Notes: generated by a model not told the origin, from the letters alone. A DNA stretch of 64,000 nucleotides from Planctomycetota bacterium (GCA_039199695.1 JBCCST010000010.1:16635-80634), one strand, 5' to 3'; numbered from the stretch's first letter, positions 8,356-27,664 are shown. Translations and numbers: made by a program.

Positions 8356-8453
8356 AGTGATGAGTACTCAGTGAACAGTAATGAGTACGAGTCGCCGACT
8401 AATCCCGAAAACTTGTACCTTCACTCGTCACTATTCACTGTGCACTCATCACT
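8356..8453. repeat. Heptamer-unit inverted repeat element 1 (AGTGATG-type)
   Basis: Left arm AGTGATG AGTACTC AGTGAAC AGTAATG AGT. The reverse complement of the right arm (8423-8453) is AGTGATG AGTGCAC AGTGAAT AGTGACG AGT, matching at 26/31 positions. Confidence 0.85.
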
Positions 8454-8463
8454 CTGACTTGAA

Positions 8464-10329
8464 ATGCAATTCTGGCTCTACGACCACAGCAACAACCTCC
8501 GTCATACCCTCGAGGCCGAGGGCGACCCGATCAACATCGGGCGTGACGATGGCTGTGACATCGTGCTCAAGAGCGCCTTCGTCGCCCCGCGGCACGCCCG
8601 CATCTTGCGCAAGGGCAACCGCATGGTAGTCGAAGCGCTCAGTCAGGCCGGCACCCGCGTCGCCAACCGCGAGGTGCAAAAAGGCGCGCCGATGCTCGTG
8701 GACTTCGGCGACGAGATCCAGATCGGCCAGTTCACCATCGCCATCGTCGGCCGCAACGGCGAGGCCGTCGACACCCGCACCGCCGACGAAGATCGCCTGC
8801 AGGCCCGGCTGATGGAACTCGAACAAGAAGTCCACGCCGAGTTGCTCGAACGCATGAACCTCCGCGTCACGGGGAGCATCCGCAAGGACGACGACGCGTT
8901 CCTCAACCAAGTCCTCTTCCACCTCGACGAAGTGTTGGAGTCTCGCGTCAATGCGCTCGAGCCGGGCATGATCCGACTGGCCTGCATGCACCACCTGCAC
9001 CGCCTGGTCACCGCGGAGGTGGTGCGGCAATGCCAGGGCAAAGTCCAGACCGAATACAAGTCCGGCGACGACCGCCTGCTCAACGCCGCGTTTGAAACGC
9101 AGATCACCGAACTGGTCACGTCGTTGGTCGACATGATGCCGTTGCTGTTCGACCCGTCGAGCGTCAGCGAAGACCTCGCGGTGGCCGAGGACTCTTTCGA
9201 CGAGTTGTTCGAGAAGGAATACCCCACGCTCGACCGCGAGGTGACGCGGTACATCGTCCAACGCACCGTCGCCAAAGACATCCAGGACATCATGCTCGGC
9301 CTCGGCCCGCTGCAAGACCTCCTGGAGATGCCGTCGGTCAGCGAGATCATGGTCGTCGGCAAAGACCGCATCTACATCGAAAAGAACGGCATCATTCAGC
9401 CGACCACGCGAACGTTTTTCTCCGACGACGTGTTGCTGTCGATCATCGAACGCATCCTCGCGCCCGTCGGCCGACGCGTCGACACGTCAACACCGCTGGT
9501 CGACGCCCGCCTCGCCGACGGCAGCCGGGTCAACGTGGTGATCCACCCCTTGTCGCTGGTCGGGCCCTGCATGACCATCCGCAAGTTCGGCTGGGTGCCG
9601 TTCACCATGGACGACCTGGTCGAGCGCGGCGCGATGAGTTCCAACGTCGCGCGGTTCCTGCAGGGCTGCATCGTCGGCCGATCCAACATCGTCATCGCCG
9701 GCGGTACCGGCTCGGGCAAGACCACCCTGCTCAACGTCTTGGGCGCCTACGCCCGGCCCAACGAACGGATCATCACCGTCGAAGAGTCGGCCGAGCTCCA
9801 ACTTCCCCAACCCCACGTCGTCAAACTCGAAGGCCGACCCGCCAACATCGAAGGAAAGGGGGCGTACAGCATCCGCGAACTCGTCCGCAACAGCCTGCGG
9901 ATGCGCCCCGACCGCATCATCGTGGGCGAGGTCCGCGGCCCGGAGGCCATGGACATGCTCCAGGCCATGAACACCGGCCACGACGGCTCGCTCTCGACCG
10001 TCCACGCCAACAACCCCCACGACGCGATGAAACGACTCGAAGCGTTGGTACTCATGGCCGTGGAGATGCCCATGCGGGCGATCCGCGAACAGATCGTCAC
10101 CGCCGTCGACCTCGTGGTTCAGGTCACCCGTTTCGCCTCCGGCCACCGCCGTGTCACCGCGATCTCCGAAGTGACCTCCATCGACCCCGAGACCGGCACC
10201 ATCCGCCTCGAAGACATCTTCACCCTCAAAGACCCCAAGCAACCCACCCTCCGCCACACTGGCTACATCCCCACGTTCGCCGAAGAAATGGTCGAACGCG
10301 GCGACTTCGACGTGGACGTTTTTCTCTAA
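8464..10329 (+). CDS. cpaF: FHA-domain-fused CpaF/TadA ATPase, copy 2
   Basis: N-terminal FHA fold ([25 protein letters not shown]), Walker A GGTGSGKT, Walker [12 protein letters not shown] and His box [12 protein letters not shown]. Confidence 0.9.
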
Positions 10330-10332
10330 ACC

Positions 10333-11184
10333 ATGCACAACCCGCCGCTGTTCATCCTGCTCAACGTCTGCGTCTTTGCCGCCGCGTACCTGCTCGTGCG
10401 CCACGGCAAAGAACCCGCCGTACGTTTCCGAGAACGTCAGGAACTCGGCTACGACCGGGTGCTGCGTCGGCAGCTCATGATGGAGATCGAGCCCCGGCAG
10501 GCCTTCACGATGGCGATGTCGGGCATCGCGGTCGCGGTGGTTTTCGCGTTTCTCCTGACGTTTAACCTCTTCGTTGCGGTGGTGTGCGGCGCGATCGCGT
10601 ATTTCATCCCGACGGTCGTGGTGCGGCACCTCGAATTCAAGCGCCGCAAGCAGCTGGAATCGCAACTGATCGACGGGCTCACCACGATCTCGGCCGGGGT
10701 CAAGGCCGGGTTGAACCTCGTACAATCGATGGAGATGCTCGTCGACAACCAGACCGGGCCGATCAAACAGGAGTTTGCCCAACTCCTCCGCGAGTATCAG
10801 ATGGGTCGCGACCTCAACCAAGCGATGCAATCGGCGGCCAATCGGATCGGCTCACCGTTGTACCGCCTGACCTTCACCGCGATCGAAATGCACCGGCTGC
10901 GTGGCGGCGACACGGGTGAAAGCATGGACCGGCTCGCCGAGGCCGTCCGTGAAATCAAGAAACTCGAAGGCAAGCTCGACGCGATCACCGCGCAGAGCCG
11001 GTCGCAGGCCTCGATGATGGCGGTGATGCCGTTTGTGTTCATCTTCATCCTCTACATCATCGATCCCGCGGGGATTCAGCTGCTGTTTACCGAGACCATC
11101 GGTCGGGTGCTTCTGCTGATCGCCGCGGCCTTGATCCTCGGGGCGTTTCTGTGGATCCGGAAAATCATGGCGGTGGATATCTAA
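10333..11184 (+). CDS. tadB: Tad inner-membrane platform protein TadB
   Basis: T2SSF-like segments (QLIDGLTTISAGVKAGLNL..GPIKQEF..GGDTGESMDRL) and position directly after cpaF. Confidence 0.85.
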   Translation: MHNPPLFILLNVCVFAAAYLLVRHGKEPAVRFRERQELGYDRVLRRQLMMEIEPRQAFTMAMSGIAVAVVFAFLLTFNLFVAVVCGAIAYFIPTVVVRHLEFKRRKQLESQLIDGLTTISAGVKAGLNLVQSMEMLVDNQTGPIKQEFAQLLREYQMGRDLNQAMQSAANRIGSPLYRLTFTAIEMHRLRGGDTGESMDRLAEAVREIKKLEGKLDAITAQSRSQASMMAVMPFVFIFILYIIDPAGIQLLFTETIGRVLLLIAAALILGAFLWIRKIMAVDI

Positions 11185-11187
11185 GCG

Positions 11188-25921: not shown

Positions 25922-26671
25922 ATGTTGCGAACCACTCGAACCGCCCAAGCTCTGATCGATGCCGCGCGTGAGCTGTCGGAGGCCTGCGATCGGCTGACGT
26001 TTACGGATCCGGTAACCCACGTCTACAACCCGCTAGCTTACGCTTGGCCGATGCACGAGCAATACCTCACGCGTTTTGGCCGATCGCGCAAACGCATCCT
26101 GATGCTCGGCATGAACCCCGGGCCGTGGGGCATGGCCCAGACCGGGGTGCCGTTCGGCGAAATCGCTGCGGTCCGCGACTGGATGAAGATCAAGCCCGAG
26201 CTCAATCACCCCCCCACCGCCGAGACCGGCGGCCACCCCAAACGCCCGGTCCACGGCCTCGACTGCCCGCGGTCCGAAGTCTCGGGCCGACGCGTCTGGG
26301 AGTTGATGCAGCAACGCTTCGGCCCGCCCGAAGCGTTCTTCAAAGACCACTTCGTCACCAACTACTGCCCGCTGGTGTTCATGGAAGCCAGCGGCAAGAA
26401 CCGCACCCCGGACAAACTCCCCGCAGCCGAACGTGAACCGCTTGAAGCCGCCTGTAACGCTCACCTGCAACGCGTGGTCGAGTTGCTTGGCCCGACGTAC
26501 ATCGTGGGCGTCGGCAAGTTCGCCGAACAAAAAGCCCGTACCGTCTTAGGCGAAGACCACAAAATCGAAATCACGACGATCCTGCACCCCAGCCCCGCGA
26601 GCCCGTTGGCGAATCGCGGTTGGGCGGAGCAGGCGACAAAGCAGCTCGTTGAGGCCGGGCTTTGGGACTAA
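25922..26671 (+). CDS. SMUG1-like uracil-DNA glycosylase (UDG family 3)
   Basis: VYNPLAYA, GMNPGPWGMAQTGVPFG, SEVSGRR and LHPSPASP. Confidence 0.9.
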   Translation: MLRTTRTAQALIDAARELSEACDRLTFTDPVTHVYNPLAYAWPMHEQYLTRFGRSRKRILMLGMNPGPWGMAQTGVPFGEIAAVRDWMKIKPELNHPPTAETGGHPKRPVHGLDCPRSEVSGRRVWELMQQRFGPPEAFFKDHFVTNYCPLVFMEASGKNRTPDKLPAAEREPLEAACNAHLQRVVELLGPTYIVGVGKFAEQKARTVLGEDHKIEITTILHPSPASPLANRGWAEQATKQLVEAGLWD

Positions 26672-26734
26672 CTGGACTTCAATGTTGACCGCACCTGCTG
26701 ACTAGCCAGTCAGCCAGGTATGGCGTTCGTCGGT

Positions 26735-27541
26735 TTACGCGTTGCCCGTGAGCTCACGCAACGCCAGCCCGATGTCGTCTTGCCGCATGAGGTGTTCCCC
26801 AACCAACACCCGGTGAACGTCCGCCTCGGCGAGGCGTTGGATGTCGTCGTGGGTGCGGATACCTGATTCGCTGACCAGGATGTCGGTGCTGGGCACTTCC
26901 TTGAGCAGTTCGAGCGTGTGGCCCACGTCCGTGGTCATAGTTTTGAGGTTGCGGTTGTTGATGCCAAGCAGTTGGTAGCCCGGGTGCGGAAACCCGACGT
27001 GCGATTTGACCTGAATCAACGATTCGTAGTCGTGGACCTCGACCAACGCGGTAAGCTTGAGTTCGGTCGCGAGGATCAGCAGGTCGATCATTTGGGCTTC
27101 GCCCAGGCACTCGGCAATCAGCAGCACCGCGTCGGCCCCGGCCGCGCGGGCCTCGTAGATCTGGTACGGATCGATGATGAAGTCTTTGCGCAGCACCGGC
27201 AGCGGGACGGCTTTCTTGATCTGAGCGATGTACTCCAGCTTGCCCTGGAAGTATTTCTCGTCGGTGAGGCAGGAGATCGCCGCGGCACCGTTTTCGTGAT
27301 AAGTCCGGGCCACCGCGACGGGGTCGAAGTCGGCGCGGATCACCCCGGCCGAGGGGCTGGCTTTTTTGACCTCAGCGATCACGCGGAGACTGCCCTTGGG
27401 CCGGGTCACCGCCGCAAAAAAATTGCGGGGCGGGTCGGCGGCCGCCGCCGCGGCTTTCACCTCATCCAGCGGCCGGGCCCGCTGAGCGGCCTCGACTTCA
27501 AGGCGTTTGTATTCGACGATTTCGTTCAACATGTCACTCAT
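26735..27541 (-). CDS. trpC: Indole-3-glycerol phosphate synthase
   Basis: IAEVKKASPSAG, SCLTDEKYFQG, LRKDFII, GINNRNL and SESGI. Confidence 0.96.
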   Translation of the reverse strand: MSDMLNEIVEYKRLEVEAAQRARPLDEVKAAAAAADPPRNFFAAVTRPKGSLRVIAEVKKASPSAGVIRADFDPVAVARTYHENGAAAISCLTDEKYFQGKLEYIAQIKKAVPLPVLRKDFIIDPYQIYEARAAGADAVLLIAECLGEAQMIDLLILATELKLTALVEVHDYESLIQVKSHVGFPHPGYQLLGINNRNLKTMTTDVGHTLELLKEVPSTDILVSESGIRTHDDIQRLAEADVHRVLVGEHLMRQDDIGLALRELTGNA

Positions 27542-27561
27542 GAGCCGCACAGGATACCGGA

Positions 27562-27664
27562 TAGGCGCTAGCCGTTGGCCGTTAACCGCTAGCCCGCAAC
27601 CGAATATCGGCCAGCAGCGTATCCCGCGAGATGGTTCGGGCTAACGGCGAACGGCTAGCGCCTA
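27562..27664. repeat. Heptamer-unit inverted repeat element 3 (GCCGTTA/GCGCTAG-type)
   Basis: Left arm TAGGCGCTAGCCGTT GGCCGTT AACCGCT AGCCCG. The reverse complement of the right arm (27637-27664) is TAGGCGCTAGCCGTT CGCCGTT AGCCCG, so the arms differ by one 7-nt unit. Spacer is 40 nt. Confidence 0.85.

Follow-up and report, generated by a model that had tools for sequence, protein, structure and literature searches.

What are three intergenic hairpins that share one architecture, two inverted arrays of tandem 7-nt units around a short loop, and that differ in the units themselves? They lie in a window of 64,000 nt (the whole stretch of DNA analysed here) from a planctomycete (Phycisphaerae) draft genome of 3.65 Mb and 93% completeness. 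We consider it probable, at about 0.6, that they are gene-less representatives, of a MITE- or REPIN-like kind, of some 100 palindromic insertion elements, the full-length copies of which are compact cassettes with a PF05635 gene.

Table 1. Features of the window around the three hairpin elements.
Feature	Position	Strand	Units or sequence	Parts
Element 1, gene-less hairpin	8356..8453		AGTGATG/AGTGAAC heptamers	5' arm 8356-8386, loop 8387-8422, 3' arm 8423-8453
Direct duplication	8326..8357	+	GCCGCTTCGCGGTAG-AC-GCCGCTTCGCGGCAG	links 3' end of upstream gene to first unit of hairpin arm
Element 2, gene-less hairpin	20670..20766		ATTTCGG/ATTTCAG (GATTT-type)	arms 20670-20697 and 20739-20766, loop 41 nt
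Element 3, gene-less hairpin	27562..27664		TAGGCGC/TAGCCGT/GGCCGTT heptamers	arms 27562-27587 and 27639-27664, one-unit (7-nt) bulge

In agreement with a preliminary description of this DNA, an inverted-repeat search and fold analysis recovered the arms, loops and folds of all three elements (Table 1). The arms of element 1 are 31 nt long and 84% complementary, with a loop of 36 nt, and its RNA fold has z-scores of -5.7 (+ strand) and -5.5 (- strand), a stability that none of 200 shuffles reached. It begins 15 nt past the stop codon of a CpaB-like gene and ends 10 nt ahead of the ATG of an FHA-CpaF ATPase gene (both assigned by Pfam). The first copy of the adjoining direct duplication provides the current stop, TAG, of the upstream gene; in the relative G008 this sequence is single-copy and the TGA stop of the gene lies inside the first AGTGATG unit, and G007 carries an independent duplication at both junctions of the site. 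Element 2 is weaker than the other two, with z = -3.7 for the - strand and only -1.1 for the + strand, and is located 7 nt upstream of the codon at which a prepilin peptidase gene on the - strand starts, downstream of xseB (Pfam). Element 3, with arms that are 92% complementary and z-scores of -5.7 and -6.4, occupies most of the 155 nt that separate trpC and radA, two divergent genes identified by Pfam. Its best fold contains a 7-nt bulge within the 5' arm, hence the arms are unequal by exactly one unit, as had been noticed before. Elements 1 and 2 have a period of 7 in Tandem Repeats Finder, and element 3 one of 14 (2 x 7). The loops of the three window elements (36-51 nt) hold no ORF, the elements match no family in Rfam, and all three lack a U-tract, as described previously, and are not called by a terminator scan.

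Hairpins of the same build are found about 109 times in the genome, in about 10 arm families, with medians of 4 tandem units per arm, 43 nt of loop and 104 nt in total. The genome-wide search for inverted period-7 pairs that the preliminary description had proposed gave numbers far above locally shuffled sequence: intergenic tracts of periods 7, 8 and 9 number 79, 96 and 47 versus 6, 8 and 10 after local shuffling (5-13x), and for 55%-77% of the intergenic tracts an inverted partner lies no more than 180 nt away. In coding DNA, tracts of periods 7 and 8 stay at shuffle level. Family copy numbers are 13-20; the AGTGATG/AGTGAAC family of element 1 has 13 copies, and CACAGAG, the most abundant with 20, has no gene-bearing copy in the 93%-complete draft. 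Unit orders are identical at dozens of loci, GATTTTT-GATTTTG-GATTGAG-GATTTTT being repeated letter for letter. Solo arrays also occur. The elements land in tiny intergenic gaps and, in frame, within genes: most hairpins are 0-30 nt from each flanking coding sequence, and all of the eight intragenic copies are in frame (8/8), murA, mutS and purL being among the host genes. The chirality is uniform, with a G- or purine-rich 5' arm in 79 versus 25 cases.

The hairpins do not behave as ordinary terminators. An intrinsic (Rho-independent) terminator was rejected on the median loop of 43 nt, on the T runs (at least 4 T within 12 nt downstream in only 3 of 96 hairpins), on the convergent gaps, which are not enriched (12 of 97 hairpins, compared with 13% of all gaps), and on the 13 elements that lie in divergent gaps.

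A list of the genes enclosed by arms, which the preliminary description had recommended, was the key test; it contains both four-helix-bundle (PF05635, "23S rRNA IVP") and nuclease-fold (PF13366) genes. PF05635 genes lie between arms of the hairpin families at five of their six loci in the genome (C37, C66, C65, C45 and C40). The C37 protein matches PF05635 over its full length (E = 1.1e-35, 122.5 bits, cut-off 33.8) and TIGR02436 with E = 4.7e-33, and has 2gsc as a relative in the PDB (E = 5e-14). PF05635/TIGR02436 is the '23S rRNA intervening-sequence protein' fold, which is pentameric in crystal structures; 2gsc and 2rld were each deposited with five chains. We know of no catalytic activity for PF05635. 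In relatives, 13 of 17 mobile-type PF05635 genes have arms and 2 more have weaker ones, and at metagenome loci encoding relatives of the C37 protein, arms flank 52 of 67 genes, with period 7 in 49 of those. The arm units of class-1 PF05635 genes carry a mostly phase-fixed AG(T/G), with AG in 41 of 48 metagenome arms. The PF13366 (GxxExxY) genes, whose product has the PD-(D/E)XK fold, lie between arms of 8-10-nt units in 4 of 4 cases in the genome and in 27 of 30 in relatives. The enclosed protein family and the repeat period go together: arms around PF05635 have units of 7 nt and those around PF13366 units of 8-10 nt (49/52 versus 1/23, Fisher p ~1e-14). Profile searches of the enclosed genes revealed no transposase between any arms, and our literature search found no publication linking such repeats to PF05635 or PF13366 genes.

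Gene-bearing and gene-less copies share arm families. Arms of the element 1 type also flank the PF05635 gene at C37:32538-32982 of the same genome (G000), and the arm family of element 3 flanks PF05635 genes in G010 and G007, with a related family at C65 in this genome; for the exact arm family of element 2, a gene-bearing copy was not found. The earlier view that the three heptamers are unrelated needs some qualification: AGTGATG and (A)GCCGTT come from arm families that enclose class-1 PF05635 genes, and ATTTCGG is similar to the GATTT-type arms of another subclass of PF05635. Likewise, structure and period are conserved over a variable sequence genome-wide, as had been suggested, but period 7 marks only one of two classes.

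In the gene-bearing copies, each of the two arms comes to within ~5-40 nt of the ORF, and often an arm contains the stop codon. Here the arm sequence changes and the complementarity of the two arms is kept: at the syntenic locus acyltransferase / PF05635 / AP-endonuclease-2 the proteins are 66-88% identical and the arms are of AGTGATG-, AGTGAAC/CCGT- or AGTTAAA-type, with every arm pair still complementary. As PF05635 proteins 64-71% identical to the C37 protein have either AGTGATG or AGGACTG units, a reading of the unit sequence would be loose at best. Gene-bearing copies within the genus are mostly syntenic, hence most are vertically inherited and not visibly mobile. Some PF05635 genes elsewhere (L262, L265) have direct instead of inverted flanking arrays. 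An origin of the gene-less loops by deletion from resident gene-bearing copies was rejected: a 16-nt loop core, GACGCAAGCGATGGCG, is common to 13 gene-less copies from 4-5 arm families and absent from the gene-bearing copies.

Comparison of relatives at orthologous sites revealed both filled and empty sites, which fits the proposal of a non-autonomous mobile element or scar family, the same arms enclosing a gene in full-length copies. G008, G009 and G007 have a filled site for element 1, G006 has an empty 18-nt spacer there, and G011 a hairpin of another family. Element 2 is shared with G008 only, G009, G007 and G006 having hairpin-free spacers of 85-93 nt. Element 3 is unique to this genome and is inserted between the halves of a small pre-existing inverted repeat; the spacer is 58 nt in G008, G009 and G007 and 44 nt in G001, and G006, G003 and G002 have three other, unrelated elements at this spot. 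Presence and absence of the three elements are nested among congeners, and at several sites different species carry different families. The five other congeners compared lack two GGGCAGT hairpins (C45:14105 and C40:25390) as well as the C45:10252-10676 cassette with its PF05635 gene. At otherwise conserved sites, whole elements of 100-430 nt are present or absent, including the gene or the shared loop core. Within the genus the number of arms per genome ranges from 0 to 64; for GATTTTT arms, two genomes have 53 and 64, the remaining congeners 0-28 and other genera none. The hairpin of an old shared site has z-scores of -7 to -11 in this genome and ~0 in four relatives. The elements are insertions, and individual lineages gain them, lose them and let them decay. 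A target-site duplication was not recognised in five filled/empty comparisons, in which the junction flanks have diverged, and neither a transposition event nor an excision footprint was seen at filled/empty sites, where the junctions are too diverged to define one.

Several known repeat systems resemble these elements in part. REP/REPIN repeats reportedly go with a RAYT (Y1/HUH) transposase, as described by Bertels & Rainey in 2011 and Di Nocera in 2013. As there, hairpin doublets of ~100 nt occur in tens of copies with one family-repeat-flanked gene copy per family, and the associated gene is vertical at a syntenic locus as the repeat population expands and contracts. The gene here is PF05635 or PF13366, however, and not a Y1 transposase, and the arms are tandem arrays, whereas a REP is a short palindrome tagged with GTAG or CGTC. 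The genome does have a true REP-RAYT pair elsewhere (C15:4275-5041), which serves a different, aperiodic repeat; the only Y1_Tnp (PF01797) match in the genome, at C15:4583-4774, is flanked by this aperiodic REP family. With MITEs the elements share the short, gene-less and dispersed form, the inverted-repeat ends and the polymorphism between relatives, but a parent IS or transposase is missing, the diverged flanks revealed no target-site duplication, and the 'terminal repeats' are themselves periodic and account for two thirds of the element.

The ORF-bearing 23S rRNA intervening sequences of the Coxiella burnetii helix 45, Leptospira and Xanthomonas type have a stem of ~28-35 bp and a PF05635 ('S23p') ORF of ~120 aa, and have been regarded as selfish; in Coxiella, three tandem GACAGAT heptamers lie beside the ORF, with a copy number that varies between strains (PMC4990558). 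The window elements have similar complementary termini (arms of 26-31 nt, 84-92% complementary, z down to -6.4), and a PF05635 ORF in the loop is found in sister copies of the same arm families instead of in the window elements themselves. Unlike intervening sequences, which occupy 23S helices 9, 25 or 45, the elements lie between or in frame within protein genes, most copies are without an ORF, and whole arms consist of 4-5 units. A 23S insert is absent: LSU model matches in G008, G005, G019 and G021 span 2734-2817 nt, and the partial 23S gene of this genome (C9:87566-89399) is contiguous and without an insert. Tandem 7-nt units in intergenic regions near ORF ends are known as GGGAATC in Xanthomonas, with 70-75 convergent inverted pairs, as G-rich heptamers in Nostoc and as cyanobacterial STRR (Rehm et al. 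2015, PMC4692102), and as TAACTGA in Beggiatoaceae (PMC4679880). In these papers the repeats have no established function, no gene is associated with them, and mobile elements are 'generally' not linked to them (PMC4692102, PMC4679880). The arrays described here are similarly concentrated between genes, in a planctomycete instead of a cyanobacterium, but differ from those reports in being tied to PF05635 cassettes and in their insertion polymorphism.

Three other explanations were weighed. The hairpin could come first, as a repeat that is sufficient in itself and is dispersed by an unlinked enzyme or by recombination or replication of the host, with the PF05635 and PF13366 genes as secondary invaders of its loop, as at the helix tips of 23S rRNA. 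Gene-less copies are indeed far more numerous than gene-bearing ones, with loops unrelated to the gene-flanking sequences, the loop core common to several arm families suggests insertion into loops, a CACGGAG array is nested in the loop of a ACGCCAAG hairpin (C6:69762), element 3 itself sits within an older inverted repeat, and classical intervening sequences replace rRNA helix loops (PMC4990558). Genes that pick any hairpin loop would not be expected to match the period of the arms so tightly, however, nor to lie so close to both arms with stop codons inside them, and the arms remain complementary over long divergence in gene-bearing copies whereas gene-less copies decay. We regard this explanation as unlikely. 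It is, on balance, somewhat more improbable still that the hairpins are host-beneficial RNA punctuation (RNase III sites, mRNA stabilisers or intercistronic insulators), kept for their structure and period in RNA. The snug fit between coding sequences, the share of hairpins in co-directional gaps (74%), the uniform chirality and the arm pairing kept in gene-bearing copies are consistent with such a role, and by analogy with intervening sequences the stem may be long enough for RNase III. Yet the same gene junctions are hairpin-free in close relatives, old copies lose the hairpin, the number of arms varies widely among congeners, copies also lie in divergent gaps and in frame inside essential genes, and arm mismatches show no bias towards G-U wobble in the sense transcript (54 sense versus 77 antisense, if anything the wrong direction). 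Together with the few T runs and the lack of a convergent excess, these data speak against RNA stability, processing or termination, as considered in the preliminary description, as the primary reason for the hairpins.

Formation in place, by replication slippage and local palindrome formation without any movement and with convergent families, would account for the solo arrays, for unit numbers that differ between arms (the bulge of element 3) and between orthologues, and for the variation among Coxiella strains (PMC4990558). It is largely refuted by the identical unit order at dozens of loci, by the presence or absence of whole elements with their gene or loop core at conserved sites, and by identical arms with and without a gene, and we consider it very improbable.

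For the preferred reading, insertion elements with PF05635 cassettes as full-length copies, the cassette consists of a 5' array of ~4-5 tandem 7-nt units, a four-helix-bundle gene of ~120 aa and an inverted array, DNA that is selfish-looking. With PF05635, the long-unexplained heptamer repeats of bacteria have a candidate protein partner. The cassette protein may bind the periodic arms, plausibly so that each subunit occupies one unit of a single strand or hairpin, and the period would therefore be the conserved quantity. The protein could then copy hairpins in trans, with host enzymes in the case of PF05635 or with its own nuclease in the case of PF13366. In transcripts, RNase III may cleave the long stem in the way it does in rRNA intervening sequences, and insertions into operons would then do almost no harm. 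Several observations speak against the preferred reading: no transposition event, excision footprint or target-site duplication was seen at the diverged junctions, PF05635 has no known catalytic activity, the gene-less copies share a loop core that gene-bearing ones lack, most gene-bearing copies in the genus are syntenic, unit sequence follows the protein loosely at best, neither CACAGAG in this draft nor the exact family of element 2 has a gene-bearing copy, and some PF05635 genes elsewhere have direct arrays.

A broader proposal, which we put forward tentatively and hold to be possible rather than probable, is that two unrelated small proteins, the pentameric PF05635 and PF13366, each define a class of ultra-compact, transposase-less hairpin cassettes, in which an oligomer measures a repeat of fixed period (7 nt and 8-10 nt, respectively) on a single-stranded or hairpin arm. 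Their gene-less progeny would be the widespread heptamer and octamer intergenic repeats, including STRR and GGGAATC, and ORF-bearing rRNA intervening sequences would be copies that landed in rRNA. If true, such cassettes would amount to a novel type of mobile or self-propagating element that extends over many phyla.

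The three heptamer-armed hairpins of the window (elements 1, 2 and 3) lie exactly at the positions given in the preliminary description. Compared with shuffles, both strands of elements 1 and 3 fold far better as RNA (z = -5.5 to -6.4), but for element 2 this is true of the - strand only (z = -3.7; + strand, -1.1). The best fold of element 3 carries a 7-nt bulge, hence its arms are unequal by one unit, as had been described. Tandem Repeats Finder assigned a period of 7 to elements 1 and 2 and of 14 to element 3. According to Pfam, the neighbours of element 1 are a CpaB-like gene and an FHA-CpaF gene, element 2 separates xseB from a prepilin peptidase gene on the - strand, and element 3 occupies the gap from which trpC and radA diverge. 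The reported lack of a U-tract applies to all three, and a terminator scan called none of them. No Rfam family was found for the three elements at gathering thresholds, and a search of window positions 8000-28000 at E values up to 1 gave chance-level matches only.

Hairpins and gene-bearing cassettes of the source genome. Elements 1-3 are in window positions; the other features are given by contig (C) and extracted locus (L).
Feature	Location	Arms	Remarks
Element 1	8356-8453	8356-8386 + 8423-8453, 31 nt, 84% complementary	loop 36 nt
Element 2	20670-20766	20670-20697 + 20739-20766, 28 nt	loop 41 nt
Element 3	27562-27664	27562-27587 + 27639-27664, 26 nt, 92% complementary	
PF05635 locus	C37	AGTGATG	family of element 1
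PF05635 locus	C66	GGGCAGT	
PF05635 locus	C65	TAGGCGC/GCGTTAGG	near those of element 3
PF05635 locus	C45	GATTTTT	
PF05635 locus	C40	GATTTGG	38/38 nt
PF13366 cassette	C58:5074-5559 (L119)		inverted-repeat scan
PF13366 cassette	C6:71326-71833 (L073:6327-6834)		inverted-repeat scan
PF13366 cassette	C35:12504-12975		inverted-repeat scan
PF13366 cassette	C31:~3950-4450 (L095)		confirmed by eye
In-gene hairpin	C40:25390-25505 (= L071:13391-13506)		carries GACGCAAGCGATGGCG
In-gene hairpin	C15:10405-10479		
In-gene hairpin	C49:514-597		
In-gene hairpin	C83:4112-4204		
In-gene hairpin	C89:6317-6420		
In-gene hairpin	C45:14105-14211		carries GACGCAAGCGATGGCG
GACGCAAGCGATGGCG-bearing element	C26:29851-29944 (L245)		

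The pairing of period-7 tracts holds genome-wide. In the draft source genome (G000; 3.65 Mb, 112 contigs, 63% GC), with genes delimited by a crude caller, intergenic DNA contains 79 period-7, 96 period-8 and 47 period-9 tracts, compared with 6, 8 and 10 in local shuffles, and 55%-77% of the intergenic tracts have an inverted partner at most 180 nt away. Period-7 and period-8 tracts in coding DNA are at shuffle level. We catalogued ~109 hairpins in ~10 arm families, among them CACAGAGR (20 copies), GATTTTT (17), CGCAGATNN (16), AGTGATG (13, including element 1), GATTTGGY (11), CACGGAG (6) and GGGCAGT (5), with medians of 4.0 units per arm, a loop of 43 nt and a total length of 104 nt. The G-rich arm is the 5' arm in 79 hairpins and the opposite holds in 25 (p = 1e-7). 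The hairpins fill their gaps, mostly with 0-30 nt to the coding sequence on either side; these distances are approximate, as genes were called with a crude codon-usage ORF picker. One element is nested, with a CACGGAG array within the 96-nt loop of a ACGCCAAG-octamer hairpin (C6:69762-69943; L073:4763-4944). Separately, a run of ~15 G followed by ~17 C adjoins a repeat-rich stretch at C4:106763-106801; this could reflect misassembly or be a homopolymer palindrome of an unusual kind.

Eight hairpins lie inside genes, all of them in frame (8/8), and add 21-39 residues to MurA, MutS-like, PurL-like, HemW-like and other proteins. The MurA insert places 38 codons where there is otherwise an 8-codon variable loop; congeners have 8-16 codons there, and other small repeats occupy the same loop in the related genomes G008 and G007. 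A 16-nt core, GACGCAAGCGATGGCG, recurs 2-4 nt past the 5' arm in thirteen gene-less copies, which represent 4-5 arm families. The core does not occur in gene-bearing copies, and its in-gene copies all read PSLAS. Within the genus it is also found inside element 3-type arms of another genome (G010:C13:16957-16972, L256). As a wider marker it was rejected, being near background in 300 genomes of the class, apart from a few in which it is part of a different, non-hairpin repeat.

The same arm families also enclose genes, and these include both kinds suggested beforehand, four-helix-bundle (PF05635, 23S_rRNA_IVP) and nuclease-fold (PF13366) genes. Five of the six PF05635 genes of the source genome have inverted arms of gene-less hairpin families within ~5-35 nt. 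The sixth (C39:23290-23598, L005) comes from a clade that lacks arms and is syntenic genus-wide (orthologues L058, L063, L064, L065 and L068); it could be an ancestral chromosomal family member or a domesticated one. In related genomes, 13 of 17 mobile-type PF05635 genes have arms and 2 more have weaker ones; the GCCGTTAGC arms of element 3's family surround PF05635 genes in G010 and G007. One PF05635 protein has >6,500 close relatives. Among 67 usable public metagenome loci whose proteins are 54-66% identical to that of C37, 52 have inverted flanking arms; the period is 7 in 49/52, and the dinucleotide AG is phase-fixed in 41 of 48 arms, usually as AGKNNTG. The units differ even between proteins ~65-70% identical to the C37 protein (AGTGATG or AGGACTG). 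At two loci from metagenome and Cloacimonetes sequences (L262:~520-1080 and L265:~520-1060) GGACTGA arrays flank C37-protein relatives in direct orientation, hence the hairpin is not universal in PF05635 cassettes. The unit string of element 1, CAGTRAACAGTGATGAGT, gave 105 matches vs ~35 expected by chance under our own estimate with uniform composition; most extend to longer AGT-phased arrays, in >15 phyla, ~20% are hairpins and a few enclose PF05635 genes. The spread of this unit across phyla is suggestive.

A syntenic acyltransferase / PF05635 / AP-endonuclease-2 locus encodes proteins 66-88% identical to that of C37, with AGTGATG, AGTGAAC or AGTTAAA arms, and each arm pair remains complementary. 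The AGTGAAC-type arms of G007 carry a compensatory CAGT>CCGT / ACTG>ACGG change. Since gene-bearing arms stay paired while gene-less copies decay, either pairing is important for the cassette or inter-arm conversion restores it; the host seems indifferent.

PF13366 cassettes are a second class. A scan of the source genome for strong inverted repeats with spacers of 150-1500 nt gave spacer lengths clustered at 308-423 nt; besides PF05635 genes, the repeats detected enclose PF13366 genes, a DUF559 gene, a 90-aa ORF and a REP-RAYT pair. All four PF13366/TIGR04256 "GxxExxY" genes, which have a PD-(D/E)XK fold, lie between inverted arrays of 8-9-nt units of the CGCAGAT and CACGGAG families. In relatives 27 of 30 such genes are found between arms of 8-10-nt units (CACGGAG, CACAGAG, CGCCAAG, CGCGAAG, CGCAGAT, CGGATGA) that are 360-437 nt apart. 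Period and protein family are associated (49/52 vs 1/23, p about 1e-14), a p-value that is indicative only because the loci are not independent. At C83:10748-11131, arms of the CGCAGAT family (38 nt each, 308-nt spacer) enclose a 90-aa ORF that matches nothing in Pfam or NCBIfam. The CCCCTCCCTTGAGGGAGGGG palindrome family provides the inverted arms, 55 nt long, around yet another small nuclease-fold gene, the third kind: a DUF559 gene with a Vsr-like endonuclease fold (E = 4e-34, C5:62110-62607).

Orthologous same-genus sites show every state between filled and empty. The element 1 site is filled in G000, G008, G009 and G007, consists of an 18-nt spacer without the element in G006, holds a TTAGGGGC-type hairpin instead in G011, and has solo arrays in G001 and G010. 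Among the congeners compared, element 2 is common to G000 and G008 only. Element 3 is confined to G000; its site is a 58-nt spacer in G008, G009 and G007, and G006, G003 and G002 each have another element in that position. Two GGGCAGT hairpins and an entire PF05635 cassette (C45:10252-10676) of the source genome are missing from five congeners. At one old site, strong hairpins in G000 and G007 (z = -4 to -11) correspond to degenerate relics with z ~0 in four relatives. GATTTTT arms number 53 in G000, 64 in G007, 28 in G002, 12 in G006 and 0-5 in the remaining congeners; other genera have none. Class-2 PF05635 genes are present in the GATTTTT-rich G000 and G007, while none was detected in G002 despite its 28 arms; these genomes are drafts and share ancestry. 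No target-site duplication was seen in the filled/empty comparisons, in which the flanks have diverged.

The site polymorphism, the decay, the in-frame copies, the absence of a wobble excess and the scarcity of T-runs point to inserted DNA, selfish or neutral, rather than terminators or purpose-built RNA structures. The proposal that geometry and period are conserved in a family of non-autonomous elements was thus right, given the filled and empty sites and the gene-bearing copies with the same arm families, while the RNA-hairpin and terminator candidates named beside it found no support. For terminators, the U-tracts, the pattern scan and the gap types all speak against this role: only 3 of 96 hairpins are followed by a T-run of at least 4, and their gaps (72 co-directional, 13 divergent, 12 convergent; all gaps 1284, 407 and 259) show no convergent enrichment. 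Selection at the RNA level was dropped as the main explanation, as the arm mismatches show no sense-strand excess of G-U wobbles (54 vs 77). As for the origin of the gene-less hairpins, internal deletion of resident gene-bearing copies was rejected, because their loops share nothing with the gene flanks. A RAYT was likewise rejected as partner of the periodic arms. The one weak Y1-transposase match (PF01797, E = 7e-6; C15:4275-5041, L007) is bracketed by inverted arms of 65 nt from the aperiodic GTTTAGCGGGTGACGCGAAGCGTCCC family, a different REP family that is also dispersed in the source genome; a truncated copy lies at C22:48042-48511.

Tandem arrays of heptamers and octamers belong to the commonest intergenic repeats of prokaryotes, and to our knowledge neither an origin nor a function has found acceptance since their first description. 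We likewise know of no explanation for the origin of the intervening sequences (IVS) of rRNA or for the roles of PF13366 and the very large PF05635 family. The closest described object to the cassettes is the ORF-bearing 23S rRNA IVS, which in Coxiella has a 28-bp stem, an S23p ORF and a variable number of tandem GACAGAT heptamers, and which RNase III excises (PMC4990558). No IVS was found in the 23S rRNA genes of the present lineage. In population behaviour the hairpins most resemble REPIN-RAYT systems, although the enclosed gene differs and a genuine REP-RAYT pair coexists in the same genome. Inverted pairs were noted for the heptamer repeats of Xanthomonas, with no gene partner or link to a mobile element (PMC4692102), and PF13366 was classed as "unknown" (PMC3424549). 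A full-text search of the available library found no paper joining heptamer or octamer repeats to PF05635 or PF13366 genes.

With modest confidence, we propose a mechanism in which oligomeric cassette proteins would recognise the periodic arms and act in trans to spread hairpins, while RNase III would render transcribed copies harmless. With ~100 hairpins per genome, some of them in frame in essential proteins by predicted translation, the elements affect gene calling, operon prediction and assembly. The source genome unites both gene classes, gene-less progeny, and datable gains and losses in cultured and uncultured congeners. Together with this, the clean rule connecting period and protein family makes the question accessible to direct work on how proteins bind the arrays, on cleavage by RNase III and on trans-mobilisation.
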